A stretch of DNA of 33,116 bases from Cyanophora paradoxa CCMP329 (GCA_004431415.1 QPMI01000661.1:1-33116); one strand, 5' to 3'. Shown: positions 416-33,116, numbered from the stretch's first letter. Translations and numbers: made by a program. The notes: generated from the sequence alone by a model not told the origin.

Positions 416-730
416 GCCCGCCCGCCGTCCCCCCGCCCCCCGCGGCTGGGGCCCCGGCGAGAAAAAAAATGAGATAATGGGGATTCCAGCCCACCCCCCT
501 CTTTCTCACCCCCACCCCTCCGATTCCACCAAAACACCCACTCCAACGCCTTCCCAACCACCACTTCCAGACACACTCTCACAACGTCTACCACCCCCAC
601 CTCTCCAAGCCAACCAAACAGCATCCGCTAGGTAGTATCTAACGTCTAGTCCGATCGATTTGCAAAAGATATAGCAGTGCTTTTAGGCGGACCCCCAAAG
701 CGCCGGTCTCAGAATAATCTTCAGATACAG

Positions 731-875
731 CTAGACGTTAATTTGTGTACTTTGAATCTAACAGAGAAAACACGTTTAGCTCAATTCTAGACGATATTAA
801 TGAGTACAATGAAGCTAACAGAGGAAACACGTTTAGCTCAATTCTAGACGTTAATTGTGTGTACTTTGAATCTAA
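731..875 (+). repeat. Subterminal ~57-bp imperfect tandem repeat
   Basis: CTAACAGAG(A/G)AAACACGTTTAGCTCAATTCTAGACG at 758-793 and 815-850. CTAGACGTTAATT..TGTACTTTGAATCTAA at 731 and 844. Confidence 0.8.
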
Positions 876-969
876 AAAACAAAGAGGTTTCAAGGGTTAA
901 GCTACACGTAATTACTATATCATCGGAATCTAATTACATACTCGAGTTCAGGTTCTAGCTAGACGCTAA

Positions 970-1650
970 TTATTCCCACCGATGACGTAGTCCAAGTTTA
1001 GTGAATCCACTTAACATTGGTTTGTATTCGATCGACGGCCCGACAGGATCAGCGCTGCTAGAGGCGATGCGCAAGATCGATGTGTTTGCTACAGGTAATT
1101 CGCTAGCATTCTCATCCACCTCGGGGATTGCGACGATCGTCTTAGCAGGAACAGCAGATGATGGAGGAGAAAGCTTTTTTTCAATTTTGGTCTTAACAAT
1201 CGGTTCGTTTAAAATCTTGTTTTCCATTTTAGTCTCAACCGCTATACCAGCAATAAGATCACAGCACGCTTCTTTGAAATTGTTTTTCAACCCAGTCACT
1301 GTTTTAATGAAATATCTGCTGCGATTACCAGTCTCAGATACATACAGCGGACCATCGTCAGTATCTTTAAGTTTACTAGTTTTGCTTTTCTTAGTCCGCG
1401 AATTTGGGATCTTATCTAGAATAGCGTTTTCGTCAGCAGTAAGAGCAAAATCGATAGATGCTCCCTCACCACCAGCAGTCCGACGAACTAAAGGATACGA
1501 TTCAGTATCACCACTCAAAAATTCAATATTATTCTTTTTATTGGGTGAGTTTGTAAGTTTTCTAGAAGCTGCGCCTAAGAGCCACTTGTGCTCCGCACCA
1601 TTTGTTTTAAATAAGGAACAGAAAAAAGTCGACAGACAAGCCAAGCGCAT
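970..1650 (-). CDS. Hypothetical protein (basic, hydrophilic)
   Basis: 226-aa ORF co-oriented with and directly downstream of the penton gene. No recognised motif; start uncertain. Confidence 0.4.
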   Translation of the reverse strand: MRLACLSTFFCSLFKTNGAEHKWLLGAASRKLTNSPNKKNNIEFLSGDTESYPLVRRTAGGEGASIDFALTADENAILDKIPNSRTKKSKTSKLKDTDDGPLYVSETGNRSRYFIKTVTGLKNNFKEACCDLIAGIAVETKMENKILNEPIVKTKIEKKLSPPSSAVPAKTIVAIPEVDENASELPVANTSILRIASSSADPVGPSIEYKPMLSGFTKLGLRHRWE

Positions 1651-1664
1651 TCGCGAAAGTGAAA

Positions 1665-2533
1665 TTAAGCAAAACTGCGATCAAACGGATGAAACTCACT
1701 ATCTGTGTTTCTGATTGACGAGCGAAGTGATGCCTTTGTGTATGAAGAATCTTCAATTTCGAACTCGATAACGAATGAGAATTCAGTGTTAATAGCTGCA
1801 GTAAATCCATTAAAATAACGTATTGACATCAAGTTGCTCTAACTCAGAATTATGATCGACGGAAACAGGAACACGTTCATCAGATGTATATTTGATTAAG
1901 CTCTCCAAATTTTCGCATCGATATGAATCTTTGCCAACGATGTGTTTGACCAGTTATTTATTGTTGAATCGAACCACGAATCTGATCGATATGTAGAAGA
2001 GATAAGTATGGTAAAGAAGATCAACAGGTATATCGCCAACGATAGCAAACGCATAATCAACAGCATCAACTGTGATTGGAGTATCCAGCTGTTCTGCGGA
2101 ATCTGTAACAGCCTTTGTGAATCGAGCAGATTTGCGAGTTCAAGAGTGGAAACGTTAGAGTAAACTCCGATTCACACAAGATGGTGATTTTCATTGACAC
2201 ATCATCAAAAACTGTTAAGAACTTTCGCTGGTAGTACTCCCAAATAACTGTATTGTTGCGTTTTCAAAAGACATTCATGTAATTCGTAAGAGATGTTTGG
2301 TGTGTATGATCCAGCTCGAAATAGGTTCGATCTGGTTTTAATGACGTTGCTAGGATCGAGCGTAATGGTTGTTATTGAAGCATCAGCAGCAAGATTATAC
2401 ATATTATGAAAAAGTTCTAGCGATCAATTCTAGCCGACTTCACGTTTGCTAACGCCCGAGGTAGATTAATTTTGAAATTCGAGGACGTGCCTTCGAACCG
2501 ATCTCTAGAATCAACATTTACGCGGAGTTTCAT
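1665..2533 (-). pseudogene. Minor capsid protein (penton, single jelly-roll), frameshifted
   Basis: Manual translation gives N-term VNVDSRDRFEGTSSNFKINLPRALANVKSAR and C-term LAKIHIDAK..GELIKY...INTEFSFVIEFEI...FHPFDRSFA*. These match the pentons at 20199-21131 (VNIDSRDR..., NSFQLEFIE) and 21140-22169 (ends LHPSYPVITSFA*). Confidence 0.75.
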
Positions 2534-2577
2534 CTTTACAACAATATACGTGAAAATATTCTGTAATATAATATCAA

Positions 2578-3795
2578 ATGGCGCAAGCAGGAACTACTCT
2601 GAAAAGAGCTCCTAACAACCAAAGGATCGAACGAGCTATATCTATCACAGGTCTAACTGTCGTGTTAGTCCAAAGTTTAAGCCTTTCCTTGAGACGATCC
2701 GTCCGCGATGGTAACTCATACGGATCGCACAAACTGCCGCTTTCGACCTTCCGCGCAAGCAACTTCTAAACGGTGTTTCCCTATATTTTAAGTCACAGTC
2801 GCTGGTGGAGCTGCCGCTCAGTACTACAAATGGAGCTGTGCATTTATTGAAAACGTACGCTTTGTTCATGATCCTTCAAGATGGTGATACCTGGAGATTG
2901 GTTAACTGTGAACGCGCTAATCGATAATAGCGTCTGCATCTGCCAAGCTTTTGCTAGCAGCTACGGATTTGGAAAAGACGCTGCTCTAGAGATTCTCGAT
3001 GCTAGCCGTGAGTATGTACTGAAGATCCCCTCCCAACTCTGGGACAATTCCTACTTTCCTCTGCTAGCATTGGCTGACATGCCCACCGTCGAAATCGACT
3101 TCCGTTCGGCTGTTGTGGTTGGAACCGTCGCTAGTGCTGTTGCAACTCTAACGGATTGTGCGCTTGTCTGCCAGTTCGTGAACATCCCTAGCGAAGAGGC
3201 TGAGTCTATGCTTAATCGGCAAACGAGAGCGGTGGTATTCGTATTCCTTTACCGAGATTATTTCAAAGCGCTCGAGGCAGTTAAAGACTGACGATGCGGG
3301 TAATGCAGTAGAATATCCCTTGCCAACGTCAGCGGCCTTGTGCACGCGATCTGATGACAGTTGCGTAATGCGAATCACCTGGGCACTCACAATCACAATT
3401 CATTTGCTGCAACGAAATGCGCTTAAAATCGATTCATTTGAGATCATGCACAACAACCGAACTCTCGACATCAGCAATAAGCCCATCTCTGGTTTTGTAT
3501 CGTCATGCTATCACATCCCAAACAATACCGCGGCGCAACCACTGGTAATTCAGCCCTAGGTTTCGAGGATGGAAACGTCTATGGAATTGTGCTTTCGAAA
3601 TCTGGAAAGGATTCGCTACATAACGCTGTTCTTGGTTATACCGATTTCTTCAATTCCAGTAGCAGCTATTGCTCCCTCACAGTTACAGGTTGTACAAAAC
3701 ACCGCACCAGCTGTCGTTGATTTCCATGTCCTACGCACAATGTTCTAGTCATAAATTCGTATCAAATGTCTACTCTAAAAGTAAGTAACTTCTAG
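2578..3795 (+). pseudogene. Major capsid protein (double jelly-roll), several frameshifts
   Basis: Fragments align by eye with the MCP at 22223: YVLKIPSQLWDNSYFPLLAL vs FFVEIPVPWLNHYLPLGAL, and LGYTDFFNSSSSY vs SGFVDLTNSSSSF. Same position upstream of the ATPase. Confidence 0.75.
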
Positions 3796-4480
3796 ATGGA
3801 TATTAAATTGTTTGATCGACGGAAATAAAACTTCCTAAACGGTTCTTGTTTGTCGGCCCCACCAACTCGGGCAAAAGCACCTACGTAAAACACGTATTAA
3901 ATGCAGTATCAAATCAACTAGACGATATTTACGTCTTTAGTACAACAGCATTTACTGGACAGTGGGATGATACGACTCGCAAGAGCAATATTTACGAAGA
4001 ATGGATCCGGTTTCGGTTGAGAGTCTTCTAGAGCGTCAAAAAAGAAAGACGACGCAAGAAAGATGAGCGCAAGATTGGCAATCGTTCTAGATGATTTGCT
4101 CGATAATGACCTAGTAAACGTCCACAGCGATCGATTAATGCAAAAGCTCTTCACATCGGGCCGTCATTATAACATGAGCCTTTTATCACGACGCAACGCC
4201 TTTGTGGCATCAGTCCAACGATACGAAGGAATTGCGAATATGTGTGCTTTTCGTCGATTCTCTCGAATATCAAAGAGTTCGATTGCGTCTTTGCCGAATA
4301 CAACGCCGGAGCGAATCGAAGCAGTTTTAACGCGTCTTTTCCTTGAATGGGTCACAGCTATCAGGTTTTGATATTTGAAGCCGTGAGCGCGGACCGCGTC
4401 TACTCTGTTGATAAATCTTCTGGAGATTTTTCGGCTCTATCAAAGTTTTTACACGTAAAAAAGCGGCGCGATCAAAATCC
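3796..4480 (+). pseudogene. A32/FtsK-like DNA packaging ATPase, frameshifted
   Basis: Walker A GPTNSGKS, Walker B AIVLDD and the KLFTSGRHYNMS arginine motif, spread over shifted frames. The 3' end is approximate. Confidence 0.88.
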
Positions 4481-4704
4481 GGTAACCAATCCTGTCTAAG
4501 CAACCAAGCTGTATACTCTGGTTTAGCTGAGGCAATCCACAATATGAGGATCCTTTGTAAATGCCAAACGAAATAAGATGACTTGGTGAAAGTTGTGATC
4601 TACCGGCCAATAGTCTTCTAGATTCAAATCTTCTTCAATATCCATCAAAAAATAGTCGGCAGACAACCTGCCTCGGCTGCGCCCACGGGTGTTATTCCCT
4701 TCAA

Positions 4705-5238
4705 TTAAACCTGTGGAAAGTTCAGACGCAAGAACGGCTTGTCTACCTCAGAAGTATGTTCGAGAACGTAAGCATCGCGGGCTTTAGCAGCAGCTTCAGC
4801 AGTAGTAAAGTATCCGATGTTCTTATTGCGACCATTTATCCGATATCGCGCCTCCCATTTTCCACGCTGCTGATGGAACGATACACCAATGAAACCTGAT
4901 GTGTTATTTTGCCGCCGGTTTTGGTTCAGTTGTTGCTGCCGCTTTGTTGCAAGTCGAAGATTTTCGCGACGATTGTCAAGCTTGTTCAGATTTATATGAT
5001 CAACTGTCAAACCATTCTCCAACTCACCGCTGATGAAATTATGCAAATACACGGTCTTTCCATTGATCATGGTTTGAGCATATCCACTATGTAAACTCCA
5101 GCGAAATCCAAGAACGCGCTCAGCGTCATCCTGTGAAACAAGAGCGTAGGCGACAACGACTCCATATCGACCATTGCGGTGACCAGTAATTGGAATCAAC
5201 GCAACACCTTCAGGAACATCTGGAATTGCGACCTCCAT
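4705..5238 (-). CDS. HNH endonuclease with C-terminal AP2 DNA-binding domain
   Basis: LHNFI...TVDHINLNKLDNRRENLR (HNH_3), followed by NTSGFIGVS..KWEARY..IGYFTTAEAAAKARD (AP2). Intact ORF. Confidence 0.92.
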   Translation of the reverse strand: MEVAIPDVPEGVALIPITGHRNGRYGVVVAYALVSQDDAERVLGFRWSLHSGYAQTMINGKTVYLHNFISGELENGLTVDHINLNKLDNRRENLRLATKRQQQLNQNRRQNNTSGFIGVSFHQQRGKWEARYRINGRNKNIGYFTTAEAAAKARDAYVLEHTSEVDKPFLRLNFPQV

Positions 5239-5349
5239 GTCTCTTCTTTTTCGTTACATTTACAGATTACATTATCTTTAAGCCTAAAAAGTCGCGCTAA
5301 TTTGTTATAAAAGGATTTATGTCTCATATTATTGAGAGATAAGCGAACA

Positions 5350-5658
5350 ATGAGTTCTGCAGATTATACTGCTGTAAAGCGTAGCCGTGGACGTCCGCCA
5401 AAGGTTCGTCTTTTGACAATGGATTCATATGAACCAAAGAAGAAGGGTCGTAAGCCGATAGAGGTAACACCGGAGATTTTAGCAGAGCGACGCAGAAAGA
5501 ATGCTGAACGGAATCGTAAACTACGTCATACGAACGAAACATATCGTTTGAAACAGCTTGCCATCACAGCAAAATATCGAGCTGAAAATCCTGATCGTAT
5601 TCGGGAGTACCACAGAAATGCTATTTCGCGTAGATGTCTTGCTATAGACGTTGCTTAG
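5350..5658 (+). CDS. Small basic putative DNA-binding protein with AT-hook-like motif
   Basis: RGRPPK and KGRKP motifs, then an R/K-rich helix. Divergent from the HNH gene. Confidence 0.6.
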   Translation: MSSADYTAVKRSRGRPPKVRLLTMDSYEPKKKGRKPIEVTPEILAERRRKNAERNRKLRHTNETYRLKQLAITAKYRAENPDRIREYHRNAISRRCLAIDVA

Positions 5659-6567
5659 CACCAAGTATAAGCTTTGGCTCTCCTGCAATCTCAAGCTTCT
5701 TGAGCTCTCGATACTGCCGGCTTTGGCCGCTGTATTTTTTCGTTTCGATCAATCCCTCGCGTCTCAATCGTCTCTGCTGTCGCATTTTCACTTCTTGCGC
5801 AGCGAGCTGCTTGTCTGCGACTTTTTCGATTCGTGTTTGAGGTGCAAGCTTACGCGGTTGACGTATTTCCGATGGTTTAACACGTCTAGAAATTTCCACA
5901 CCCTGTTTCGTAACGAGTCGAACACGGTTCTTGTCTGCGCCAGCAACTATGTACGTCTCCTTGCTTGACTTTGTGGTTCCCTTCGCAAAAACGCTTGGCT
6001 TCGGCTCCAGGACTTGCACTTCGGTCCCTGTGCGCGGTATGTTCGAATTGTCTCGTTCAATATCGTTCTGTCGCTGTCTAACATGATGCAGCTGCTCGGC
6101 TACCTGTGTATTTTCACGCATCCACGTTGGTGATCGATCTCCACCAAATGCATTGTGTGCTGTTTCATTGTACGCCTTCAAAATCGCAGGCAAGCGTGAG
6201 AGGAAATGCGGGGAGCCGCGTGCCTCTGTGTCGGCCTGGATCAATGCTCGCAATGTCCTAGCGAACCTGTCGATAATTCCAAGTTTGTTACCTTTAGAAA
6301 TGTGGTCATCTTTGGCAACATCAGTGTGCATTTTCAACGAGTTCTCTTCAGCCATTGCCCGAATTGCTGCTGTGTTGAAGCCGTTGTCTCCTGAAAAGCC
6401 CCATATTCCAGGTAGCTGCTCGATCATTTTTGGAAGCTGCTTAAAGTCTCGAGCTTACGGACCACAGCGAAACGGGTTGCAATCTCGACCGCTGCGAACA
6501 GGCGAAATCTCCCAATGAACAGCACGTCAATTTGCCACGCACCCGGTGGCGCAGTAATCTGGTACAT
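5642..6567 (-). CDS. Retroviral-type (rve) integrase, one frameshift at ~6430
   Basis: MYQITAPPGAWQIDVLF..AAVEIATRFAVVRKL (first D), FSGDNGF (second D), KLGIIDRFARTLR (D at the usual E position), AYNETAHNAFGGDRSP, and an SH3-like GTEVQV..YIV C-terminus. Confidence 0.85.
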
Positions 6568-6576
6568 CTTTGTAAA

Positions 6577-8698
6577 TCAGGCGCGATTTTTATAATGTCC
6601 AATCGCTAGGGTGTTGATCCCGTCAGTCTCGAGGAAGCGTTTGGTATCAAGGGGATGGAGAGCCTGACGCGAGGTTCGTTGTAAATAAATCTCATGTCGT
6701 TTCGAGCGGAAACCGAGAATTCCTTTGATGTCATACGATTGCTTTTCTCCCTCTTTAGGACAGACGCACCGGAGGAATACATCCCGTGTGAGTCTGTTGT
6801 AGTACGTTTTTTGAATACCTTGCATACCTGTTTATCGTTGAATCTTCACGTGAATAATAGTAAGATTTCGGCCGGTTAGCGATCCACTCTGTCATTTGCA
6901 TACCATGTAGCTCATCTTTGAATAGTCCAGGAGTTTTGCTCATTAATCTTAGAGCATTTATTTCTCCATTGCTTAAACCTGCAAATAGCCTGTGTCCTCT
7001 CGGATATTCACTCACATCAAGCTCGTATCTGATCGATCGTAAATCCACATAGATATCCTTGGTTTTTACTTCAATAATAAGGCTGTCCGTATCAGTTCCA
7101 AGTAGCTTTAACGCTGACCCCAAAGCGGCTTGAGCATCTGGTAGTAAAAGCGGTACATGTGCAGTTTTGATAATTCGAGGATAACAAATCCGCAGTATAT
7201 AGGTTTATTAAGATTATACTCACTTTTACGCTTGGAAACAAATACGAGATTCTCTTCATATTTAACTACCTGTTTTAAACGATTAGGCTCACTGTTTATC
7301 TTTGCCAAACGATCACCAGATGTAACAAGCTCAGAGAAACAGTGTTTTCTCACGTTCTCCATCGTCTTTCCGAATACACTGTTATTCATTAACTTGAAGA
7401 GATCCTGTTTGTATTTGTGATCAGCACGCTTGCGTTCACTTGTATTTAGATCGATGAAATCGTTCAGCCATGCACTTTGTTCGTACGATAAAACTCGATG
7501 GATGTTGGTTACTATCATTCCCAGTGTTGTATAAAGCTTAAGCAAACGCCCATCAACAACATAATTCTTCTTTGGCAACAGGTTTGGAACCAATTTTGGG
7601 GTTCGTTCGACTGAAGTAAGCTTTTCTTTGTTAATCATATCCTGCTGTTGCTTCGATAGATGATCCATGGACACGCACATTCGTTCAGGAGCCAGTGGAT
7701 AATCTGAGAACTCATCGTGGAGATGGTCAGACATGTACATATCAACTTCGAGAGCATAGCCACGAGGACCATCAGCGTCAAGGTTTCCAACGAACTGCAT
7801 AGCATCAACATCTTGATCGAGTTTTTCCCAGCGGAAACCTCCAGTGGGGAGTTTCTGTTTCATAGCAACGCCATACAGATTATTCGCATCAAGGTACATC
7901 AGCCATGATTCATTGCCTGTTTTTTCGTAATTTTGCACACATTCAATCTGGGTTGTTGATTCATCAGCATGCGTATATTTTCCAAATTTCTTTAAAATTG
8001 CCGCTGCTTTTGCCGCTTTCTTTTATTCTTTGCAATCACTCTTGAACTCATGTATTTTACGTGTTTCAGGAACTCGTTATTAGCTTTAGCATATCTCTTT
8101 GATATCATACTGATACCTCCCTGATTCCTGATTCTATAAATCTGTACATATCCTGCTGTCCTCGTGAAAGAGCTCAAGCTTAACGCCTGTGCGTTTAAGA
8201 GCAGCCTGCCAAGCGAATCCTGGGGATGACATGAAATAGCTTGGATCTAAGCTATACGTTTCAATACATGTATCGCGATAGTTTTCGAACACGTCTGCTA
8301 GTAACGTGATATCTGTCATCATATACTCCATTGTATAGTCTGATATCGTTCTGCAGCCGAGCTCTCGCCAAACATCCTTGGCATGCGCGTATTCATCTTT
8401 CGAGCATTTCTTCTGTTTAAGTTGATTTTTGAAATAACAACGTGCAGGTAGTTCAATCTCTTGTAAACGTTGCCAGCTTGATATATAGCTATATGGATAT
8501 ATTCCCTTGCTTGTCATCAACTCGAATCTAGTATCATCCGGATACATTGTGCGTGTGATCTTCTTCTTTTCCGCGGGAACCGCTTTCGCTAGATCATCCA
8601 AACTAGCATTCAAATGTTGCATCGAATCCCGAAGTACATAAATTCCGTACTTAAACTGTGATATCTTCTCGCTATTCTGAAAGGTCTGATCAAATTTG
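6577..8698 (-). pseudogene. polB: Protein-primed family B DNA polymerase, 5'-truncated and frameshifted
   Basis: KGIYPYSY, YMMTDITLLADVFENYR (Exo III), LDPSYFMSSPGFAW, GGISMISKRY, YLDANNLYG, KLMNNSVFGKT, GTDTDSL. Homology stops upstream of QNSEKISQF..LRDS at ~8690. Confidence 0.92.
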
Positions 8699-8982
8699 AC
8701 ACATAGTAAAATGCGGAGTTTTAACCCTCGGCTTAATCTTAATTGATTTTGTTGATATATCTCGTATATTCTATTTCAATCAATCGATAATCTGTGTATA
8801 TCTTATCGAATATTCATTTATTTCGATTATTTTGTATTCTTTTCGATATTTTATCGTAAATTTCTCTTATTTTCCGATTAGTCTTACTGAGTTAATCGAT
8901 AATCTGTATATATTTCCGAATAATATAACTGAATCTCAATTAGATCTTGCCTCTGGTTAAAACTCCGCATTTTACTATGTGT
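8699..8982. repeat. Perfect 28-bp inverted repeat flanking a 228-bp AT-rich spacer
   Basis: ACACATAGTAAAATGCGGAGTTTTAACC (8699-8726) and its exact reverse complement (8955-8982). Confidence 0.92.
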
Positions 8983-9232
8983 GATTGGTCTGTTTGTTAA
9001 TTGATTTAATCGATATTATATTCATGTACTTTCTCGATTAAATTTAATTAAATTTAATTCATTTAATCGGAAATATATCGCTAAACTCGATTAAGATCCA
9101 TAAATGATTCATTTGTTAAATAAACAAATCGATCTCTTATTGAATCCAATCGTAATTATACATGAAACTTATATGTTTTTATCATGTTTTAATGATTCTA
9201 AGGGGGGACCCTTAGGATTTTTGAAATAATTG

Positions 9233-9353
9233 GGTGTGACAGGTGTGACAGGTGTGACAGGTCCATCCCAAGGAAAGTCCTAGTGAGAAATTGATTTTGA
9301 AAATCCACGGGATAGACCTGTCACACCTGTCACACAAACCATATTCAGTAAGG
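9233..9353. repeat. Iteron hairpin, copy 1 (putative replication origin)
   Basis: (GGTGTGACA)x3-GGTCCATCCC-39 bp-GGGATAGACC-TGTCACACC-TGTCACAC-AAACCATATTCAGTAAGG. 27-bp stem with one mismatch. The origin role is inferred. Confidence 0.85.
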
Positions 9354-9826
9354 ACCTCATATATTGGTAAAATCTCAGTGTTAGTTGGTGTAGTTGATTC
9401 AAAAAATGCATTTATACTCTGATTCATTGTTATTTCCTGTGAAATTTGAGTCAACTCAACCCACTTAGTCAACCCTTGCATTGAATTCGTAACAAAATCC
9501 ATATACTTTTACTACTTTTACGATTAATATGAGTCAACCTTGAGTCCACTTAAATATAAATATTATATAATAGGGGGAATCAAGGGGAGATGCTGAGTGT
9601 TATTGTAAGGAAATCGAATAGTATTCGAAATACTTGACATTGCTTAATGTAGGGTGCATTCATATTTCGGCTACATCATACAGTAGAATTCTATTGTAAC
9701 AAAAGCTACTGTAGAAAGAAAATCATTGTAGAAAGCTATTGTAGGAAAGGATATATTATATCCTTTTTTAACGATTGCCATTGTAATAAAAAAGGTAAAT
9801 TACCCTGTTTATCATTATAGAAACCA

Positions 9827-10223
9827 TCAAAACGGGAATCTATCATGTTTATGTCTCTCAGTCTTCTCAAATGTTAAGAAATTCATTGTTTTATCGATCT
9901 CATCTGCAACTGCTTGTGTTTTATGCTGAGCTTCTTTACCACAACTGAATATATCAATTGCTAACATGCCTTCATTGGAATAACAATGAGCTGTGCAATG
10001 GCTTTCATCTAATAGCAGAACCAATGCAAAACCAGGAGGTGATAGTTTGCCATCAAATATCTCACAATGCTTATGAACAATCCTAATACCTTGTCTCAAT
10101 ACTGCTTGTTCAAGGTTCCATAATCCAATTACCTAGGAAGCTAACATGCTCATAACCTGTTGCTATAGCTGATTTAGCCTTGTAATCAAGCATAACATGA
10201 AAGCCTCTGTATTTAGTCTCCAT
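9827..10223 (-). CDS. S-adenosylmethionine decarboxylase proenzyme (short prokaryotic-type family), one frameshift
   Basis: N-term GFHVMLDY. PPGFALVLLLDESHCTAHCY..GMLAIDIFSCG contains the ESH self-cleavage site and the DxFxCG motif. Confidence 0.85.
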
Positions 10224-10246
10224 TAAGAATACCTTAGAAAAATTAA

Positions 10247-10519
10247 CTAGTCAAACCTAATGCAAATATCCCTATACTCTACTCTGATTGATGAAGTAGC
10301 TCTTTTCCTGTGTGCTTGACTCTTTCTTTTGTTACAGTCCCTGCAACCTGATCCCTTCACATGATTAAAGGGATAGGTAAGGATCACCTTATTACACTGC
10401 AAACATCTCACAGATACTTTCTCTTGAGCTTTGATGTAATGTGTCTCACTGTAATCGAATTTATCTTTACCATGAACTGTCATAGCAGCATCAATAAACT
10501 TTTTTGTTTTACTATCCAT
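10247..10519 (-). CDS. DUF723-like zinc-ribbon protein
   Basis: FIDAA..VHG.KFDYS..YIKAQEKVSVRC..C...PFNHVKGSGCRDC pattern, seen in viral endonuclease-associated repeats. Confidence 0.7.
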   Translation of the reverse strand: MDSKTKKFIDAAMTVHGKDKFDYSETHYIKAQEKVSVRCLQCNKVILTYPFNHVKGSGCRDCNKRKSQAHRKRATSSIRVEYRDICIRFD

Positions 10520-10541
10520 ACTCTATATATAACCAATATTC

Positions 10542-11374
10542 TTATGGAGCAGTATCCTGTCCAAAAATGGGGAAATATCGATTTGTGCCATAATACTCAG
10601 CATAGGTATTCTGCCTTGCAATAAAATCGGTTCTCTCTGCAAACATCACACACTTGTAGATACCAAACTTGGTGGCTCTCACTAAGAACTGATAGTCTTC
10701 CAAACCGAAATTGACTCCATGATAAGCAATTCCGAAATTATCATATGGGGTGATCACTACTGCAAAGTTGGGAGTTCCACCTTCAACTTGGCATACAGCA
10801 TAAACATCTGGTGGGATATCCACAACAACCTTGTAGTGATCACCAATCTCAACAAGAGAGTCTACTACTGCTGTTTGTTCATTCACAACAATGGGGAATA
10901 TCTTGATTATATAGGGGCATTCATGCTGGGGACATAGGTTCGAATTCTTGTGTTGGGATCAATGGGATTGGGTTGATCATTCACAAATAAAGGCGCTCCA
11001 ACAGCCCCACCAACCCTAAGACCATCACCAATATAAGCTCCCCCCGATTTGCAGTTAATAGCTCCCGACCTAGATTCAAAAGAATAAGTAGACAGAGGAT
11101 CTCCATAGCTATCTGGGTCTCCATAATGAGCAGAAAAGTTTGCATTTGTGACAAGTAGCTTAGTTGTCTTAACTATTCCATTATTTTTATCACATCTGAG
11201 TTCCTGTAATCTCAGCTTGTGGGTGGAACCAAATGTATTCATTGTAGGTTGGACCTCTGTGGATTGGAGACCCTCAACATCATCAAAAGTAGCATGCTGC
11301 AGAACATGGTTTGCTGGTGCAGCTAATGAAAGCTGAGGTGTAATAATTCGTTCAAGTGGGGGTTGCTCAGCCAT
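10542..11374 (-). CDS. Putative fibre/virion protein, paralog 1 (two ORFs joined by a frameshift at ~10910)
   Basis: Colinear with the 11398 ORF over both halves (ELRCDKNNGIVKTTKLLVTNANF; YDNFGIAY...FAERTD). The structural role is inferred. Confidence 0.6.
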
Positions 11375-11397
11375 TTTACATTAAAGGGATATATCTT

Positions 11398-22169: not shown

Positions 22170-22222
22170 ATTAAGGATCATTGGTAGATTTTTTATGTTG
22201 CAGTATAATAAAAGAGATAATC

Positions 22223-23590: not shown

Positions 23591-23649
23591 ACCATATTCA
23601 GTCTCCCTGCATTATTTTTATCTGTCTTTATTTAGGAAGATCTACAACA

Positions 23650-24344
23650 ATGCAAGATTTAGAAGAGTTTAATGTTTCTGAAATGATAAAAGGTGTTTTC
23701 AGAGCCATTTTTATAGGCAAAAGTTGTACGGAAAAAGCGAATGTGTAAAGTATTGGTTAAAGCAATTACATGATGCCAAAGTTATTGATGTTGTCCTAGT
23801 TGTGAGTGGGACCAGCTTTAATCATTTCTGGAGAGAGGTTGCAACAGTAGAACTTGGTAAATGGGATGCTGGTTACATTTCAAAGCTTTTGGATGAAAGG
23901 CAGGAGAAAATCGAAAAAGGTGAACCTGTGAACCACATGTGTGTTGTTTTAGATGATTTAATTGATAATGAGATAATTGATTTAACCAGAGACAAGGTGG
24001 TGTCATCTCTGTACAGTAGGGGCAGACACTCGAAAATATCCATTATCTGCATTACACAGAAACTCAGAAAAGTCTCTTCCACTATTCGAGTTAATTCTGA
24101 TTATGCTGTTTTCCTGAGTGCTGCTAATCGCAAAGAACTTGAAGCCATAGAGGAAGAATACAATATAATGCGAAACAAGGAGGACTTTTACAAAATGTTT
24201 GAAGAATATGTCCACTCCTATCAGTATATCGTTTGGTCCTCTGCTGGCTACTCAGTTAAATACTTTGTAGATAAAGCTGAGCTTGTCAAAGACTTCCCAT
24301 TTCCTCGCTTCCACAGAAAGCCAAAAAGAAAGAAGATGAACTGA
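23650..24344 (+). CDS. A32/FtsK-like DNA packaging ATPase, frameshift in Walker A
   Basis: RAIFIGKSCT/GKS, CVVLDD, LYSRGRHSKISIICITQ, IRVNSDY. Confidence 0.9.
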
Positions 24345-24457
24345 AACCACCAGAGAAAGAGGAAGCCCCAAAGAAGTGAAAAGCCAAGTCCATAGCAATA
24401 AATTGATGCGATATAAACGCGGTTTATAAAATTATCTCTCATTCTAATAAAGATACA

Positions 24458-25190
24458 ATGCCTCCCAAACGAAAGATAGGGATCCCAGCTGGGGCTGTTG
24501 GCTATTCAGGTGGTGGAAACAATGGATCTATTAACACTGAACCAATGAAATTCAATGGTATGAACGAAATCAAACCCTCACAACCCCAAGAAGACCCCCT
24601 TAATGCTGCCTATGAGGAATCAGTCGATGACAAAGCCCCACAAAGTTCAACTGCTGACCAACTGAACATTTCCCTGAGACAGCAAAGATGAAGTCTGTTG
24701 CTGAGGGTGCCAGGCGAATTATTGGGGCTGCTGATGACAAAGGTTTAGGCTTGCAAGATCTTTCACTGGCTCGCAAAGGTGAGGGTCTTAGTAAGGAATC
24801 AGACAAGGTAATTCAGTCTATGGCTGGTGAAGTCACATACAAGACTGCTCCCACTCAAAATATTCATCGAATTCCCAAGGCTCAATGGATGAGATGACTG
24901 CTAAACTCAAAGATCTGGAAGCCAAATCAAGTGCCTTGGAGCAGTATGTTACTGAGAAGAAAGAGAGAGCCAAGCTAAAGGAGATGCTTCGAAAGGAAGT
25001 TTATAAAATGGGAATCACTGGTGTCCCAGATAAACAGTTTATTGCTAAGAAAGAGAACCAAATCGATGAGCAGGCAGTAGATGAAATGAAAACAAAAACC
25101 CAAAAGGGAACCATTGAACCTGGTGCCACCAAAGCTGAAGTAGAAAAGGGAGTTGCCCCAACAGTATATAAAAGACGAGTTTGGCTTTAA
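24458..25190 (+). CDS. Hypothetical protein (three overlapping ORFs, probably one frameshifted gene; possible core protein)
   Basis: MPPKRK start, overlapping consecutive ORFs, K/E-rich coiled-coil C-terminus. Confidence 0.45.
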
Positions 25191-25211
25191 TTTCTCTGTT
25201 TTATTAGAGAT

Positions 25212-25484
25212 ATGGACATAATACGAAAGTTCTTCGAGATGTTCAGTCTGCATGTGGTGAGCAATTGCCACAGTGGATGTTGTGAGACAACAGTGGAGTT
25301 TGAGATGTCAGATAATGAGGATAATGCCTCAGAAGCAAGAGAGAGAAGGAGATCAACAGTTTCTGTGGAGTCAATGCCAGCAGACCCCACAGAGTATACA
25401 TATGAGCAACAGGAGTATCCAAGGAGAAGTTCTTTGCCAGGCGAAAACGTTTTCTCAGCAAATATTAATGGAGGATACAATTAG
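25212..25484 (+). CDS. Hypothetical small protein with CxSxCC motif
   Basis: 90-aa ATG ORF co-oriented with the structural block. Confidence 0.45.
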   Translation: MDIIRKFFEMFSLHVVSNCHSGCCETTVEFEMSDNEDNASEARERRRSTVSVESMPADPTEYTYEQQEYPRRSSLPGENVFSANINGGYN

Positions 25485-25799
25485 TTTGATCGAGTTTACT
25501 AGTGATGAGCCTTTAACTGAGGGTGCTATTAGACACATTCTAGCAAAGCAGAAACGATATAGAGAGGACCCAGCATATAGAGAGTATAAGAAACAACAAG
25601 CCCTGGCATCCTATTATCGCAGAAAAGCCCAAAAAGAGGAGCAGAGACCCAGAGGAGACCGATTAAATATTATTTGCCTACTGATAGTAGCAATGGACCC
25701 CCAGGTCTATAAGATAATTGAGAAAAAGCGGTCTCAGTATGCTACTGAGGCAGCTATAAAAATATATACAAAGGAATTGGCTTTATACTTGCAATCAAG

Positions 25800-26021
25800 T
25801 CACAGATAAGTTTTGTAAATATGCTTTTGTTGTTTTTTGTTTGCATTCTCAGACACTGAAACAGTAATGTGAATGTTTACTGATCTATTTCTCTTTGGTT
25901 TAGCTGCATACATATTGTAACCTATCAATCTCTGTGACATTTCGATATATGCCCCTATATCTCCATGCTTTATGCATTTATCTAACTCAGTCATGGTCAT
26001 CTCATCAAGAGTCTTTGCCAT
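25800..26021 (-). CDS. Hypothetical small protein
   Basis: MAKTLDEM... ORF preceded by the shared YTTAARG..TATA motif. Confidence 0.5.
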   Translation of the reverse strand: MAKTLDEMTMTELDKCIKHGDIGAYIEMSQRLIGYNMYAAKPKRNRSVNIHITVSVSENANKKQQKHIYKTYL

Positions 26022-26088
26022 TTTGTCTTCACTATACACAATCAAGTAAGCCTTAAGTATTCTTGTCAAATTTTGGTCATTTTCGATA

Positions 26089-26209
26089 GGTGTGACAGGT
26101 GTGACAGGTGTGACAGGTCTATCCCATCGATTTTGAAAATCAACTTTTCACCAGGGCTTTCCTTGGGATGGACCTGTCACACCTGTCACACAAACCATTT
26201 TCAGTAAGG
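26089..26209. repeat. Iteron hairpin, copy 2 (putative replication origin)
   Basis: (GGTGTGACA)x3-GGTCTATCCC-39 bp-GGGATGGACC-TGTCACACC-TGTCACAC-AAACCATTTTCAGTAAGG. Lies ~40-60 bp past the helicase stop codon. Confidence 0.85.
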
Positions 26210-26249
26210 CTATAAAATATATGTAAATCTCAATCATTAATCGTTTTCT

Positions 26250-28567
26250 TTAATATTCGGCATCATCTTCATTGTCTTCCTGAACCCTTGTTATCTTTCG
26301 AATCCCAATATATCCTCTGGCAAGAATACCATTAACTCGTTTTCTTTCTGATTTAACATTGAAGATCTCCCTTACTCTTTTCATAACAGATACACATTCA
26401 ACTTTATCATCAACACTTTTGTATGATTTGTAAATGATATCACTGGAAACAAAGTCGTTAGCATTATGTGTAACCTCGAAATTATCTCGAAGCCATTCAC
26501 CAATCTTATCATTTTCAGCTATAAAGTTAATTCCCTGTTCAATAATCGATTGAGGGGACTTCTTAAGATCTCTTCAACCTCTTTGTTCTTCCACATATCC
26601 AGTAATATCTTCATGTGAGCCATCTTATACTCATCATCATTGTGTAGAAGTGTGAACAGAGTTGGGTCAGCTTTCTTTTGACCAGCTTCTGGCTTCTCTC
26701 TGAATATATTATTGAATCTCTGATAGGAAAGTCTTCTTTGAATTGCAAAGTCTGGTTTATTTATAGTCAAATTGTCATTAGTTGTAATGTAGACCTGAAA
26801 CATTGGGGTAAGGATAACTGGGTCTTTGAACAAGGCTCTCACAGTCATTTCATTTCCACCTGTGACCTCCTTAATCTTGGAGATCTGCAGTTTATCACCA
26901 TCTTCAGCCTCATTACTGAATACAAGTCGCTTTCCAAGGAGTTTGGCAAGTTCAGGAGTAGCCTCTGATGAGTTCTTTTTAGGCTTAGTCCAATAGGATA
27001 TTTCGAGAGGGCTGTAATAGCGACCAGATATCTGTTTGCAGTATTCCTGAACAAGTGATTTACCATTAGCACCAGCACCAGTCCACATATAGAACTTCTG
27101 GGATTTAGTTGATCCACTAAGGCAATTGCAATGGATGCCAGAAGATACTTTCGCTCTGCTGGATCATCCACAATCTCTTTATAAATCTGATTGAGATGCT
27201 CTATTTTCTTGGGTCTACATTCTCAGTATAATCATAACCCACAGTCTTACTCACCATATCTTCCAGTTTACCCTTTCTGAAAGTCATAGTGGTCAGATCA
27301 AATACACCATTTTCGAATCCAATCACATATGGAACTGTGTCAATCTTCTCAAGAATTCATCATCATTCAGCAGTGGGACAAGTCAGTCAGAAGGGATTTG
27401 CGAAATCCTGATTGTTTAAGATTTTGGCAATGGTCATCAATGTTTTGGATCTTTCTTCGAAAGCTGCTTTGTTTCCTCATCCTTTAAAGCTCTTTGACTA
27501 TAATGCACAGCCCTCCAAGGTATTGGGGGACAACAAGACGGCTTATATCTAGGTAAATCTTTAGGTTTGTGTCATCAAGCTCCCAAATCCCAGTATCAGT
27601 ATTGAGTTTGAACCATGACTTTTTGGAGTATCTCCAAGTGTGTTTAAGAACCTCTTTGCATACTAAACTCACATCATAATGAGCGCCACCAGAACCAGCG
27701 GATTTATCTATAAGATTAAAGATATCAGATTGCATTCCAATGCAGATGAATCGTTTTTTGCAATTTCCACTGTAGCTTGACACAATGTATTTGTTATCAT
27801 CTCCTTTAGCTTTCATAACAAACCAGTTATTCGATTCATGTGAACCATTGCAGCATGGGCAATTGAGTCCCTTGTTAGCAGCATCAAAGTTAAAGCCAAG
27901 TTCAGTTTTAGAGATTATATTGGATGCATAAATCCCATATCCACCAGCTCTTTGATAATATTGTTTTCCAGTTCATCATATGAGGTAGCATTAGCAGTAT
28001 ACTCACTCTTATAGATGTAATTATCTATAATCCACTTTTTGAAGTCATCAGTAGGCTCATTGAAATCACAGGTATCATCCCATGGGGAGATCACCCAAGC
28101 CTTGTTGACACTGGGACAAACATTAATTAATCCAGAAGTTCCAGTTCCAGTGATTGTTTTCAGGTCAACCTTTTCAAAGCCTTTAAAGCCTGGAGCCTTA
28201 TCGGTGATTTTGAGTTTAGTGAACTCCTCAGGTCGTTTAAAGTAGACATGATAGCCTTTTTTAGTTTTTGCCATGGGCTGATTGGCATCAAAGTCATCAG
28301 GAAACATATCCGGAATTTGTCAAAGTCCTCCTCATCATCAAAGTCAATAACCATCATGTTGTCTGAGAGCAGAATGCCCCAAGATACATACTGATTAGTT
28401 GCCAGCGCTTCCTCATACTTTTCCCAGGACCAAGCACCTCCCTTATGCTTGAAAACAGGGTCTTTGCTGTCAGGTTTCACTGGGATAATCATGTTTTTGG
28501 CTAGATCCTCATCAGATCTGAGCCAGTTAGCGAGCGATTTGAGCGATTTAGTCTGTTTGGCGTTCAT
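26250..28567 (-). CDS. Bifunctional primase-polymerase (PrimPol/AEP) fused to D5-like SF3 helicase, several frameshifts
   Basis: IIPVKPDSKDP, WGILL..MVIDFDD, TKKGYHVYF (PrimPol); IGFENGVFDL (D5_N); GAGANGKS, LVFSNEAE, IKEVTGG..VRALF, ITTN, AIQRRL (SF3); winged-helix-like C-term (IGEWLRDNF...RGYIGIR). Confidence 0.9.
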
Positions 28568-28574
28568 TTTCAGC

Positions 28575-28635
28575 GATTGGGGTCCCTTTTATATATATAG
28601 AAGATTTTTCTTTAAGTAGTTTTGGGTCCCCAATC
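28575..28635 (-). promoter_or_regulatory. Putative promoter of the primase-helicase, bracketed by a 12-bp inverted repeat
   Basis: Minus strand CTTAAAG-N10-TATATATA. GATTGGGGTCCC (28575-28586) and GGGTCCCCAATC (28624-28635) are inverted with one mismatch. Confidence 0.55.
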
Positions 28636-28777
28636 ATTTTTTGTTGGAAATCGAGAAAGTATCCCTACGAAATTTATCCACATGATATATCGAGTGGTTT
28701 AGATACAAAAAGGATGAATGGGTATTTCAGCGAATAAACAGCATATCCCAGCCTAGTAATATGCTGGGAAAAATAAT

Positions 28778-29032
28778 TTAGACATGTTTCAATTTTCTCC
28801 CTCTATTTGAGTAAGGGACATCATACAAATACTTGACAAAGCAGACTGCATTGGCTGCATACTTTCGCTGACATGAACTTGCTATTTTCATTGCTCTATA
28901 GGTATCATCGGTTTGATATAGATCTCTAAGCTGTGTGGCTATTTTTTCGTTAAACTTTTTGATTTGAGCCTTACCTTTTTCAGTTTGCTGGTACCTCTTC
29001 ATAGCTCTCTTCTGGGCTTCACTGAGTGGCAT
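28778..29032 (-). CDS. Small basic putative DNA-binding protein
   Basis: MPLSEAQKRAMKRYQQTEKGK pattern, common in small viral DNA-binding proteins. Upstream TTTAAAG..TATATATA. Confidence 0.6.
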   Translation of the reverse strand: MPLSEAQKRAMKRYQQTEKGKAQIKKFNEKIATQLRDLYQTDDTYRAMKIASSCQRKYAANAVCFVKYLYDVPYSNRGRKLKHV

Positions 29033-29074
29033 TTTTCCTCTGTCTCTCTTAATATATATAGAGAATTCTTTAAA

Positions 29075-29713
29075 TCATTTTTTGTTTTGTGGTTTCTGGA
29101 TATTTCTTTGAACAATATGTAAGCAACATTTCTTCAAACTCCTCAGGGCTTGCATGTTGTTTGCAATCACATGTTGCTGATGGCACAGGAAAGACTTTGG
29201 GCAGATTGGCTTTTTACAATCACATTTGTACATGTGGTATTCATTGTGTTTGCGATCACTGAACATTTTGATGACATCATTCGCAAATTTGTTTTTAAAC
29301 TTTCATATTTTTTCCAATGGAGCCTATCACACAACGGAATATAATTATAGAACTGATTTGCATCCGTCAAATAATGACAAAGACCAAGATCATAGAAATC
29401 ATCTCGAAACCAGACTTGCAGAGAGTTGTTCAAGAGGTTTTGTGTGTGAATCCTTGCAATGTATGAAAGAAATGAATATTCACACCTGCAAAGAGGACAT
29501 GATATGCAATAGTTGCTCTCTGCAAGCATCATTTCTGGGTATCCTTCAAACTGTCTGAAAGCTTTTTGTGCGCAGCAGTAGAACGGGATACTCATTAGAG
29601 TCATGAACCTTATATATATACTTTATAATGCAGGCTTCACAAAAGAAATGCTCACAAGCAAGCTCAATGATTGTATTCCTTTGAATAGTTTTGAAACAGA
29701 TTGGGCAGGACAT
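29075..29713 (-). CDS. RING-HC (C3HC4) finger protein, frameshifted
   Basis: Manual translation MSCPICFKTIQRNTIIELACEHFFCEACIIKY, continuing in another frame to CISCPLCR. Cys-rich C-terminus; 3' end uncertain. Confidence 0.8.
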
Positions 29714-29787
29714 CTTTGATATATCTATATAGAAGATATTTCTTTAAATCATTTTTTTGTTGCTCAGCCAAATGTAATGTTTCAACA

Positions 29788-30077
29788 TCACATGCATTGT
29801 AGTCCAGAATGTGAATAAGGTGAACTCTGATACTGTAATGTGTTTCTACAGAATGGGCATTTTGTATTCCGACTATTCCTCTTGCTGTTTCATGCATCTA
29901 TACAGACTGTCTTGAAGCATTGATCACATACAAACTGATCATAGCTAGTCTCATCACATTTACATAAACTGCATAGAATGCGTTTATATTCTGAGTTTTC
30001 ACAGGTTTCATTTCTTTCTTTAATACTTCTCATGAATGGCTGAAATAGCTAAGCGTTCTTTGACCGTCCGGATTCAT
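29788..30077 (-). CDS. Second RING-like (all-Cys) finger protein, frameshifted
   Basis: Manual translation ILCSLCKCDETSYDQFVCDQCFKTVCI.C....KCPFCRN across shifted frames. Confidence 0.65.
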
Positions 30078-30187
30078 TCTTGCTATTTGGCTTCTATATA
30101 TATACAATATAAAATTCCTTAAGTATTTTTCGCGTTCGGAATATCCCCATTTAAAACCTCCCTTTTATTAGGAACAAGTTAGGAACA

Positions 30188-33116
30188 ATGCCCCGAATTA
30201 GCAACAGACTCATTAGAGAGAAGAAATGGGAACTCATGGGATTACTGGGAACACTGTATGCAGCCCATGAAATCACAGAGGCTGAATATGACCGGGAAAT
30301 CGGATTTATTTCAAGGGGCAGACCCACTTTAGCAAAATTAACCAGAAAAGCCAATAACCTCTATGACAAAGTTGAGACTCTTGATGAACTCGATCGCCTG
30401 AGGCAAATAGAACCAGAGGAGAAGATGGAACAGCCATGAATGAATTATATCGCTGGCTCACATACAGAGCCAGAAGGGAAGTTGTGGTAGATGTGATTGA
30501 ATATTTAGATAGAATTGCAACCTCTCTACCAAAACGTTTAAGAGATAGTCTGGATCAATTCAGGGCAATCAAAGTTCGCTTGTCGTTTATCTGCAAGTTC
30601 GTAAAAGTCAGCAATCCACAGGTTTGGATATCGAAATACATTTACAGCGATTATTTTGTATTAACCAAATCGAGAAATATTCGAACTGAGCTGAATAAAG
30701 CAGCCCAAATGTGTCAGGAACAGATGAATGTTGTGATAGCTATCGATTGAGAGAATCGAAATGCTAAGAGTTGCTATTATGAGTTATGCCCCAACTGGTG
30801 GCTGCTATGTTAAAACACCAGAATCAATTGCAGCTAAGAAAGCCACAGTGAATATTCGAAATATTGATGATTCTTGCTTTGAAAATGCCATTTTGGCATG
30901 GATCCATAGGAAAGATGTAATTCCCACAAGAGAAGAGTGAGCTTACACAATATCGCAAATGGAAATACTCACCAACCACATACAATCCTTTGGCTCTCAA
31001 TTTTCGACAATATCCCATTCCCTGTTCCTGTGGATGCTGAAATCATTGATAAATTCGAATCTCAAAATGCAGGCATCAGCATAAACATATTTGGAATGGA
31101 TGAGGTTATATATCCCCTGCATCAATCCAGCAACCCAGGCAGAGAAAGCAAAAGATTAATCTAATGCTCATTCATGATGATGAAGGGAATGGTCACTATA
31201 TTACTATCATGTCCCTTTCAAGACTTCTCAGAGTTGCCCTTGATAAAACCAAGGATCAAAAGTTACACTACTGTGATACATGCTTATCTCGATTCAGGTC
31301 TGAGGCTAAACTCACTGCTCATGTGGACTCAAACAGATGCATTGATTGGAGACTCTCAAAGGGAATCACCCTAACCTGGACACCACATAGAGTTTGGACT
31401 GAAAAACCTCAGGAAAACTGTCTGGCTTCCTGTTTGTGGTTACTGCAAGATTGAACATAGAAGCATCCCCATTGATGCATCGAAATCCAAGAGAAAGTCT
31501 CAGCAGTCAACTAGAATAGTCACTGGGGCAGATGTTCAGGAGTTTCGATTTGAGGGTCAGGATCCAATGGGAGGTCTGTTTGAATGCTTGGAGTCCAAAG
31601 CAAGAGAGCTAATCGATTTCCTGTTTCACCAATATTCCATGAATGAACTCACAGATGAGCAAAAGGCTTTTACAGGCTACAAACACTGTTACCTTTGCAG
31701 TGAGGTTCACCAAGGAAAACTTCAAATGCAGGGATCATGATCACCACACAGGTCATTACATTGCACCTGCATGCAGAAACTGCAATCTCCATAGGAGAAT
31801 CTCAAAGCAAACAAAGTAGCAGTGGTTGTTGACCAAATGGATGACTGTGGACATTCATTTTCAGAAAAATAGCAGGCATGGGTGATAAAAAGCGAATCGA
31901 AATCCTTTCGAAAAACTTTGATCAATACCTTTCATTGCAATGGGTTCTTTACAAGTTCATTGATGCAAGTAATTTTATGGATTTGGGCTGCTGATGTAGA
32001 TGAGTTAATGACAAATTCCAGGCTTTAGAAGGCTTTCACACTCAGTATATGGACTTGACCCAGTTCATTATGTATCTGCACCTGGGTTATCTTGGGATGC
32101 TATGCTTAGGACCACCAAGGCAAAAATAGAGCTTATAAGTGATGTAGAGCAATACGAATTTGTTGAGAGGGGAATCAGGGGTGGCTTTGCAACAATGCCT
32201 TGTAGGTATGCTGAGGCTGATGGTGAGAACTCCCATATAATGCTGTTTGATGCTAACAACTTGTATGGCTACTGTTTGAGTCAGCCAATCCCAGTTGGTG
32301 ATTTTAGATGGGAGACCGAATTCAACCCACAAGATAACAGATCCAGTTTCCTGGAAGTTGATCTGGATTACCCAATTAGGCTATATCTAGACCACAGTGA
32401 TTTCCCCCTAATTATTAACAAGAAAATAGTAGAATATGCAGAATTATCACAATATCAAAAGAGCCTATTAGATCTCTCAGGAGAAGAGCTTGATAAAACC
32501 CCTAAGCTAACTGCAACCTTTGGTTCTGTGACCAACTATGTGATTTCTGAGCCTCTTCTACAGTATCTGTTGGACAAAGGGTGAAACTAAAGAAGGTTCA
32601 CAGGGTCCTATCATTTACTGTGGCTCCTGTAATGAAACCCTACATTGAGCTGAATACTGAGATGAGAAGGAAAGCAGTGAATAAATTCGAGGCTGATTTC
32701 TATAAGCTCATGAATAACTCAATCTATGGGAAATGCATTGAATCTGCAGAGGTAGATCTGTGGTTAAGATTGCAAACAGTGAGAAACTGTTTATGAAATA
32801 TGCAGCCTCCCATTGGTGAAATCAACAAGTCCCATAAACGAAAAAGCAGTTGCCTTTGAGTTTTACACAAAGCATGTGAAGCTAGATAAGCCAGTTGCTA
32901 TTGGGGCTTATGTTTTGGATGCAGCCAAACTGCATAACTACAAGTTCTTCTATGATACTGTAAGGTCCCAATGGACAAAAGCAAAGTTACTATTCCATGA
33001 TACTGACTCCTTTTGTCTATATATCGAATCTAAGACCCTACAAAAAGATATAGAGAATATATCTTATGCTTGGACCTAGGGGATCTAACAGAATGACCCC
33101 AGGTAAATACAAAAAT
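30188..33116 (+). CDS. polB: Protein-primed family B DNA polymerase (Polinton/adintovirus-type architecture), frameshifted, runs off window
   Basis: GGCYVKTPESIAAKKATVNIRNIDDSCF, GHYITI..CDTC..H (C2H2), RDHDHHTG..AC..CNL (EndoVII-like), GLDPVHYVSAPGLSWDAM, GIRGG, FDANNLYG, KLMNNSIYGK, HDTDS. The N-terminal 30188-30750 ORFs are tentatively included. Confidence 0.9.

Follow-up and report, generated by a model that had tools for sequence, protein, structure and literature searches.

A polinton-like virus probably integrated into the polymerase gene of an older polinton at an rtcB intron of Cyanophora paradoxa

We analysed a 33,116-nucleotide stretch of the genome of the glaucophyte alga Cyanophora paradoxa CCMP329 (GCA_004431415.1, QPMI01000661.1:1-33116), called the window below, which opens in three exons of the host gene rtcB, for the tRNA ligase RtcB, and consists from position 460 onward of two viral elements, A (460-8698) and B (8699 to the window end). 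A and B are different elements that meet at 8698/8699. In our judgement a younger, high-copy B probably integrated into the DNA polymerase gene of an older A, which is itself likely to have integrated in an rtcB intron. A is a dead, decayed element of the Polinton/Maverick type; B is a polinton-like virus (PLV) of a known group, the glaucophyte PLVs, and represents a sparsely sampled lineage of it. The nesting is visible at its left junction only, the window ending inside the polymerase gene of B. Two features face each other at this junction:

6830-8697, minus strand: protein-primed DNA polymerase (PolB) of A, with stops and at least one frameshift, its N-terminal side cut off at 8697
8699-8982, no strand: left terminus of B, a 284-nt foldback (inverted repeat I2) with 28 identical inverted terminal bases, the second copy at 8955-8982

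The initial annotation had placed a break in the A polymerase at about 8698, where B begins, and we find the same: on the minus strand the frame stays open as far as 8697, and the B foldback starts at 8699. An open reading frame (ORF) at 8137-8775 matches positions 47-170 of the 468-position DNA_pol_B_2 profile (E 6.1e-6; 25.8 bits, equal to the cut-off), and from this alignment the break falls near profile position 34. A second ORF, at 7111-8022, is 44-48% identical to PolBs of the polinton/adintovirus type (best E 2.2e-66); E values of 1e-5 or lower were obtained for 6874 of the 7996 scored candidates for this family, a coral adintovirus PolB among them. These relatives are 1000-1300 aa long, so that about half of the A polymerase is missing, including the N-terminal exonuclease part.

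On the other side of the junction, the B terminus sequence has two exact matches against an expectation of none, and as DNA the foldback folds at -45.8 kcal/mol (z -9.9). Copies elsewhere were sought in contigs from public runs with the same species label (designated X plus a number), matched to positions 1-20000 of the window and, for the terminus, to 8300-9100; about half of the words of 1-10000 were present in them. Three contig ends lie just before 8698/8699 (two in X1 and one in X14, that is, in two of four runs) and lead into three different flanks of 67%, 47% and 73% GC (hand count, 30 nt each), none of them like the A polymerase. Occurrence of the same terminus at three different flanks identifies 8699 as the terminus of a mobile family present at other, host-like sites. 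Summed word depth in X1 rises from 0-5458 (bins 8300-8677) to 8366-57103 (bins 8678-8812), with the jump at 8678-8731. The B terminal 27-mer was absent from the viral contigs and metagenome contigs scanned.

The initial annotation had offered targeting, competition or borrowing of the integrase as possible reasons why B should lie in the polymerase of a relative. Targeting is not supported, since none of the three other flanks resembles A PolB, and neither is a scenario of live competition, the A integrase being without its N-terminal part and B itself decayed. The insertion itself fared better: the two elements are distinct, a mobile terminus stands at 8699 and the polymerase is cut mid-domain, all of this seen from one side.

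Three other explanations of the junction have to be weighed. That it is an assembly chimera of two repeat families seems to us very improbable: both families are multi-copy, but at the junction A and B have no sequence in common by which an assembler might be misled, and the join falls exactly at a biological terminus. In the four runs no contig covers 8462-8677, and they therefore neither confirm nor contradict the 8698 junction.

According to a second explanation, the foldback at 8699-8982 is an independent insertion resembling a miniature inverted-repeat transposable element (MITE), and the DNA from 8983 onward is a separate element with no terminus of its own in the window. The foldback does have both terminal orientations and is flanked by TGA on either side, and contig ends beyond 8984 in three of the four runs show it followed by other sequence, from which we take it that the foldback can stand alone as a MITE-like unit. 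Set against this are contigs in X2 and X8 (depth 1100-4545) that run from 8962/8963 to 9022-9027, across 8982/8983; with only ~20 nt on the left side they stay below our 31-nt bridging rule, but they make foldback plus B body a multi-copy arrangement in its own right. Nor is the sequence after 8982 that of A PolB. We hold an independent foldback to be improbable, and read the foldback as B's own terminus and as the source of the solo units.

The third explanation is that A and B abut and are not nested, A having lost its right end, with the N-terminal half of PolB and the terminal repeat, by deletion or recombination, and B either sitting at the scar or inserted before the deletion. The junction can be viewed from the left alone, A and B are both old and have been rearranged, and B-family variants with other architectures do exist, as indicated by an X15 contig that joins 9594 to ~19671-20000 on opposite strands. 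The break coincides, however, to the base with the start of a terminus seen at other loci too; this is what plain integration predicts and random deletion does not, and abutment therefore appears unlikely to us. With the A polymerase cut mid-domain, the B terminus at 8699 and two distinct elements on the two sides, integration of a B-family element into an older A is the simplest reading.

The distinctness of A and B is evident first in composition. GC content is 79.5% in 1-459, 43.1% in 460-8698 and 39.0% in 8699-33116, with an abrupt change at 460, and the observed/expected ratio of CpG is 1.07 in the host part, 1.19 in A and 0.33 in B. The two halves of B show matching CpG depletion (0.34 in 8699-26230 and 0.33 in 26231-33116), which fits one element distinct from A. 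We considered whether 26.2-33.1 kb might be a third element; this was not supported, its GC content and CpG depletion being the same as in left B, with no second terminus found. In an analysis of upstream motifs, TATA-like motifs were present in both halves of B and did not discriminate on whether B is one element. The terminal 534 bases of B are CpG-rich (2.05, from ATCGAT motifs) despite the overall CpG depletion of B.

Second, the two elements carry their own versions of the same gene block. The initial annotation had described in both the order penton (minus), major capsid protein (MCP; plus), ATPase (plus), with recognisably homologous but divergent proteins. The order is found in A, with the penton gene running from 2533, MCP at 2872-3759 and ATPase at 3816-4478, and also in B (20199-21131, 22223-23590 and 23650-24344, respectively), except that B has an extra penton-like gene on the plus strand (21140-21891) between penton and MCP. 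Homology between A and B is solid for the ATPase (tblastn E 1.2e-10) and for PolB (31-41% identity by tblastx), and weak for MCP and penton. The two PolB genes are oriented oppositely. The initial annotation was silent on the pseudogenisation of both elements and on B's own plus-strand PolB at the right end of the window, as well as on a frameshift in the third host exon described below.

The B family apparently has a very high copy number. Between 105 and 222 contigs per run matched the 801 bases around the B terminus (8300-9100). Depth of the run contigs is 54-81 in the host part, with 54-78 in X1, and summed bin depth in X1, which is not equivalent to copy number, is 633-2821 for A and 3078-30540 for B, with similar ratios in X7 and X14; these values suggest that A-like copies number in the tens and B-like copies in the hundreds.

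The features of A other than PolB are these:

460-970, no strand: left terminal region, C-rich at 460-640 (53.6% GC), followed by an AT-rich part with repeats at 744-883
1700-2533 (lower bound approximate), minus strand: penton-like pseudogene, open for 38 codons from its N-terminus at 2533, then with stops and frameshifts
2872-3759, plus strand: MCP pseudogene, in a single frame with seven in-frame stops
3816-4478, plus strand: packaging-ATPase pseudogene, consisting of a Walker A part, a frameshift and a C-terminal part
4705-5238, minus strand: HNH endonuclease plus AP2 DNA-binding ORF, intact, 177 aa (HNH_3 E 1.6e-11; AP2 E 5.4e-6, below the cut-off)
5642-6427, minus strand: divergent rve-like integrase, C-terminal two thirds (homologues P0003-P0008)

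All core genes of A are broken, and the HNH-AP2 gene is the one that is intact. The N-terminus of the A penton is 32% identical to the first penton-like protein of B over 37 aa (pairwise E 8e-6; tblastn E 0.006). The A MCP is matched collinearly by residues 113-191 and 387-448 of P0001, a relative of the B MCP (E 5e-4 and 0.04), and the B MCP itself gives weak collinear matches; the N-terminal ~110 codons of the A MCP were not found. The A ATPase was recognised by tblastn with the Pox_A32-positive ATPase of B, at the E value given above, and has a weak P-loop match to AAA_7 (E 4.4e-4). No adenovirus-type cysteine protease was detected at E <= 0.001 among 52 stop-to-stop ORFs of at least 60 aa in 973-8775, where such a gene may have decayed past recognition.

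The rve integrase that had been attributed to A can be upheld in part. The ORF at 5642-6427 has no Pfam match of its own, and a sequence search of it against the PDB gave chance-level matches only. It has, however, six homologues, 225-421 aa in length and at best 36% identical to it (E 2.6e-25); five of them match rve and four match rve_3, in every case under the curated cut-off (E 8.6e-5 to 0.03). Only residues 118-339 of the homologues map onto A (6406-5744), the N-terminal ~117 residues having decayed there, and hence we describe the gene as that of a divergent rve-like integrase now without its N-terminal third.

B carries a longer set of features:

9243-9335, with a second copy at 26099-26191, no strand: palindrome of ~93 nt (repeats I1, I4, I5, D2 and D5)
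9830-10132, minus strand: S-adenosylmethionine decarboxylase fragment (AdoMet_dc E 4.1e-11), the N-terminal part in another frame
10907-12243, minus strand: two paralogous ORFs of 155 and 281 aa (44% identity, E 1.8e-38), with no function assigned
12595-17023, minus strand: two paralogous fibre-like genes, 705 and 617 aa (42% identity, E 3e-47)
18653-20209, plus strand: patatin-like phospholipase fused to discoidin (F5/8 type C), intact, 518 aa (Patatin E 1.4e-20; F5_F8_type_C E 1.9e-6)
20199-21131, minus strand: penton-like protein 1, intact, 310 aa (from gene position and Atlas neighbours)
21140-21891, plus strand: penton-like gene 2, split by frameshift (from its frames and a weak likeness to penton 1, E 0.013, and to the N-terminus of the A penton, E 1.4e-4)
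22223-23590, plus strand: MCP, intact, 455 aa, between the penton-like genes and the ATPase
23650-24344, plus strand: A32-type packaging ATPase, frameshifted (Pox_A32 E 9.7e-9, 35.5 bits, cut-off 22.8), the N-terminal P-loop part in another frame
26240-28567, minus strand: D5-like primase-helicase in at least four pieces (D5_N E 2.9e-8 and DUF5906 E 4e-8, in different frames)
29170-29743, minus strand: RING-finger ORFs (zf-C3HC4_2 E 5.9e-7 at 29549-29743)
30910-33116, plus strand: protein-primed PolB with many frameshifts and stops, cut by the window end at roughly profile position 385+ (of 468)

B too is partly decayed, its ATPase, primase-helicase and PolB being broken. Recognition of the primase-helicase is well above the thresholds (D5_N 34.5 bits, cut-off 22.4; DUF5906 34-38 bits, cut-off 27.6), and that of PolB is close to them: DNA_pol_B_2 is matched at 32012-32581 (E 1.3e-5, profile 174-316) and at 32551-32793 (E 5e-4, profile 338-385), with 24.7 bits, just under the cut-off of 25.8. 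The B MCP found only two relatives, in a word-indexed search and in an exhaustive search of 1.84 billion representatives, the closer one being a Cyanophora paradoxa EukProt protein with 58% identity. Its Atlas neighbours are viral Capsid_N/Capsid_NCLDV clusters, at a very high score with recognition below the usual level. No Pfam match was found for it, a PDB search with the MCP profile gave chance-level matches only, and no relatives appeared in the viral contigs or metagenome contigs scanned; an AlphaFold model from a three-sequence alignment was too poor for use (pLDDT 44.7). Penton 1 likewise has viral Atlas neighbours, including the Sputnik V18/19 minor-capsid cluster, whose very high score we treat as a lead only.

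As the initial annotation had stated, no integrase is visible in B within the window: no integrase domain was found in 113 stop-to-stop ORFs of at least 60 aa from 8700 on, and the integrase family of A had no tblastn match in B, whose right end, a possible place for an integrase gene, lies beyond the window.

Several further observations concern B. The ~93-nt palindromes contain 9-nt GGTGTGACA repeats; their core is opposite in the two copies (flip/flop) and their right flank is direct, and as DNA they fold at -33.6 and -35.6 kcal/mol (z -7.4 and -8.4). We considered them as the inverted ends of an inner 17-kb element and rejected this as undecidable, each copy being self-palindromic, so that direct and inverted matches are equivalent. 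A Peptidase_S74 endosialidase-chaperone domain (12595-12888, minus strand, E 1.2e-12) is out of frame with the 705-aa fibre ORF, whose end it would be expected to form, with an overlap of ~58 nt, and the C-terminal part of the 617-aa fibre-like gene contains a tandem repeat of 36 nt x 9 (15202-15529, 95% matches) that encodes a recurring 12-residue unit. An ORF of 445 aa lies between the fibre-like genes and the patatin-discoidin gene, and small ORFs lie between the ATPase and the primase-helicase. Scans for tRNAs and against Rfam gave no match.

Turning to the left end of A, the host part of the window was read as follows:

53-154, plus strand: rtcB exon (Pfam RtcB E 1.7e-8, profile 128-160), with a GC donor at its end
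226-288, plus strand: rtcB exon of 21 codons, read from sequence, between GC-AG introns of 71 and 60 nt
349-415, plus strand: rtcB exon of 67 nt (Pfam RtcB profile 184-201, E 0.008, in frame 350)
416-459, plus strand: start of the third rtcB intron, 44 nt (direct repeat family D3 and sequence)

The exon at 226-288 had no Pfam RtcB match and is too short for one. Two introns are complete, 155-225 with 71 nt and 289-348 with 60 nt; a third begins at 416 and A at 460. With the exons and introns so read, and with the composition shift at 460, the proposed start of A, 44 nt inside an rtcB intron, is borne out. The donors at 155, 289 and 416 are all GC and not GT, and a GC-rich opening is common to the three introns (D3).

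We place the left boundary of A at 460-467, with some doubt, from composition and from an X14 contig (depth 386) that joins 868 back to 467 and suggests that the repeated unit starts near 467. The first 28 nt of A occur once in the window, which contains no right end of A. The repeats at 744-883 comprise three tandem units of 57 nt in which a CTAGACG motif recurs, and a copy in X15 is without two of the units. The 460 junction, for its part, appears to be crossed by run contigs: in all four runs examined, 451-455 is covered by one contig per run (depth 54, 49, 38 and 15), and the distance-from-end values put the start of these contigs at 391 (420 in X15) and indicate that they pass 460; X15 record 17 spans 420-730. 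The runs differ from the window, however, and may come from related cultures.

The initial annotation had spoken of an insert of more than 32 kb in a gene whose other introns are 60-71 nt. The intron lengths are as described, but the status of the gene is doubtful. Exon 349-415 carries a +1 frameshift, codons 1-5 lying in frame 349 and the conserved RtcB part in frame 350 with no alternative acceptor between them, and the reading frame across the rtcB exons is consequently not open. The copy may be a pseudogene, or there may be a one-base indel error of assembly in exon 3; if it is dead, one could hardly speak of a host gene with a giant intron. That this rtcB stretch is a dead duplicate or allele with a functional copy elsewhere, and thus that no working gene with a 32-kb intron exists, strikes us as quite possible, if short of probable. 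Besides the frameshift, the sole run contig over 79-109 has six differences from the window, three of them at third codon positions, as would be expected of a second, selected copy or of another strain. Conversely, the indel is of one base, in a run of two, and may have arisen in assembly, and a second rtcB copy was not seen directly. No rtcB exon was found 3' of the insert within the window, which ends inside the B polymerase.

Several of these results weigh against integration of B into A within rtcB, and they have to be taken together. The window closes before any right end of B is reached, and it contains neither a target duplication nor the remainder of A nor another rtcB exon. Contig ends beyond 8984, found in X1, X8 and X14, place other sequence after the foldback. 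Weak similarity and the neighbours given by a language model are the basis of the MCP and penton identities. A has no sharp start: an X15 contig end diverges at 619, which suggests that other A copies differ left of that point. The runs differ from the window (six changes in 79-109 and two in 451-455), and as they may be related cultures, it is not clear that they support the 460 junction independently. Finally, the frameshifted exon 3 means that the supposed giant-intron gene may really be a dead gene copy.

We nevertheless think the nested arrangement probable, and would reconstruct its history as follows. A would have integrated into the rtcB intron and B later into the polymerase gene of A, each presumably by integrase-mediated insertion of a linear, protein-primed genome, and the insertion of B would have been untargeted. 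Beyond B, one would then expect the remainder of A (the N-terminal half of PolB and the right terminal repeat) and the next rtcB exon. In this copy, probably nothing is active now. A wider proposal, which we advance only as a doubtful one when taken as a whole, would combine these elements: B would be a glaucophyte-restricted PLV lineage amplified to hundreds of genomic copies, with its 284-nt foldback also moving alone in the manner of a MITE; AT-rich remains of older polintons, A among them, would serve as landing pads in an 80%-GC genome; and the palindromes at 9243-9335 and 26099-26191 would be cis-acting sites of replication or resolution.

The points of note are the number of B-family copies, which is apparently very high, the occurrence of the B foldback terminus alone, and the question of whether the host keeps a working rtcB. 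Otherwise the locus adds a case, from an alga of very high GC content, to those already documented in which endogenous polinton-type viruses pile up in one another and in a host gene.

Among known systems, A is closest to the Polintons/Mavericks. Its PolB piece is 44-48% identical to polinton/adintovirus-type polymerases, and part of an rve-like integrase is present, along with an A32-type ATPase and with remnants of MCP and penton arranged in the usual block. It differs from them in that no cysteine protease was found, the integrase family is under the Pfam rve cut-off and an extra HNH-AP2 gene is present, and also in that its core genes are all broken and its right end is missing.

For B the closest comparison is with the glaucophyte PLVs. 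In the accessible part of PMC12220804, endogenous PLVs are listed for glaucophytes (Cyanophora paradoxa), and a patatin-discoidin fusion is reported for PLVs of Glaucocystophyceae and Rhizaria. B shares with these the patatin-discoidin fusion, the fibre-like proteins and an MCP that is 58% identical to a C. paradoxa EukProt protein. At this level of MCP identity B is a different lineage, and, unlike the PLVs as presented in that part of the paper, it has a frameshifted ATPase, primase-helicase and PolB, with no integrase seen in its part of the window.

Nesting of such viruses also has precedents. For Halocafeteria seosinensis, the available portion of a preprint (bioRxiv 10.64898/2026.07.28.741278) describes five PLVs and nine virophages embedded in other viral elements, with terminal inverted repeats and target duplications at the boundaries. 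Our locus probably resembles these in having one viral element inside another. It departs from what is described there in showing the nesting from a single side, in the decay of both partners and in its host, an alga of very high GC content. The EMALEs of Cafeteria burkhardae, to judge from the sections of PMC8547959 at hand, occupy 15 sites in host genes, 13 exonic and two intronic; they are further interrupted by Ngaro retrotransposons, and many are intact and can be reactivated. Here, too, small DNA viruses appear to be integrated in a host gene and interrupted by other mobile elements; by comparison with that account, the secondary invader at our locus is another PLV, and nothing looks active. 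A mass invasion of protist genomes by such viruses has been reported as well, according to the accessible text of PMC10120064. With mass invasion, nesting, and insertion into exons and introns all in print, the probable nesting and the likely host-intron insertion described here are an ordinary finding, and the Cyanophora locus adds detail to these systems rather than a new principle.

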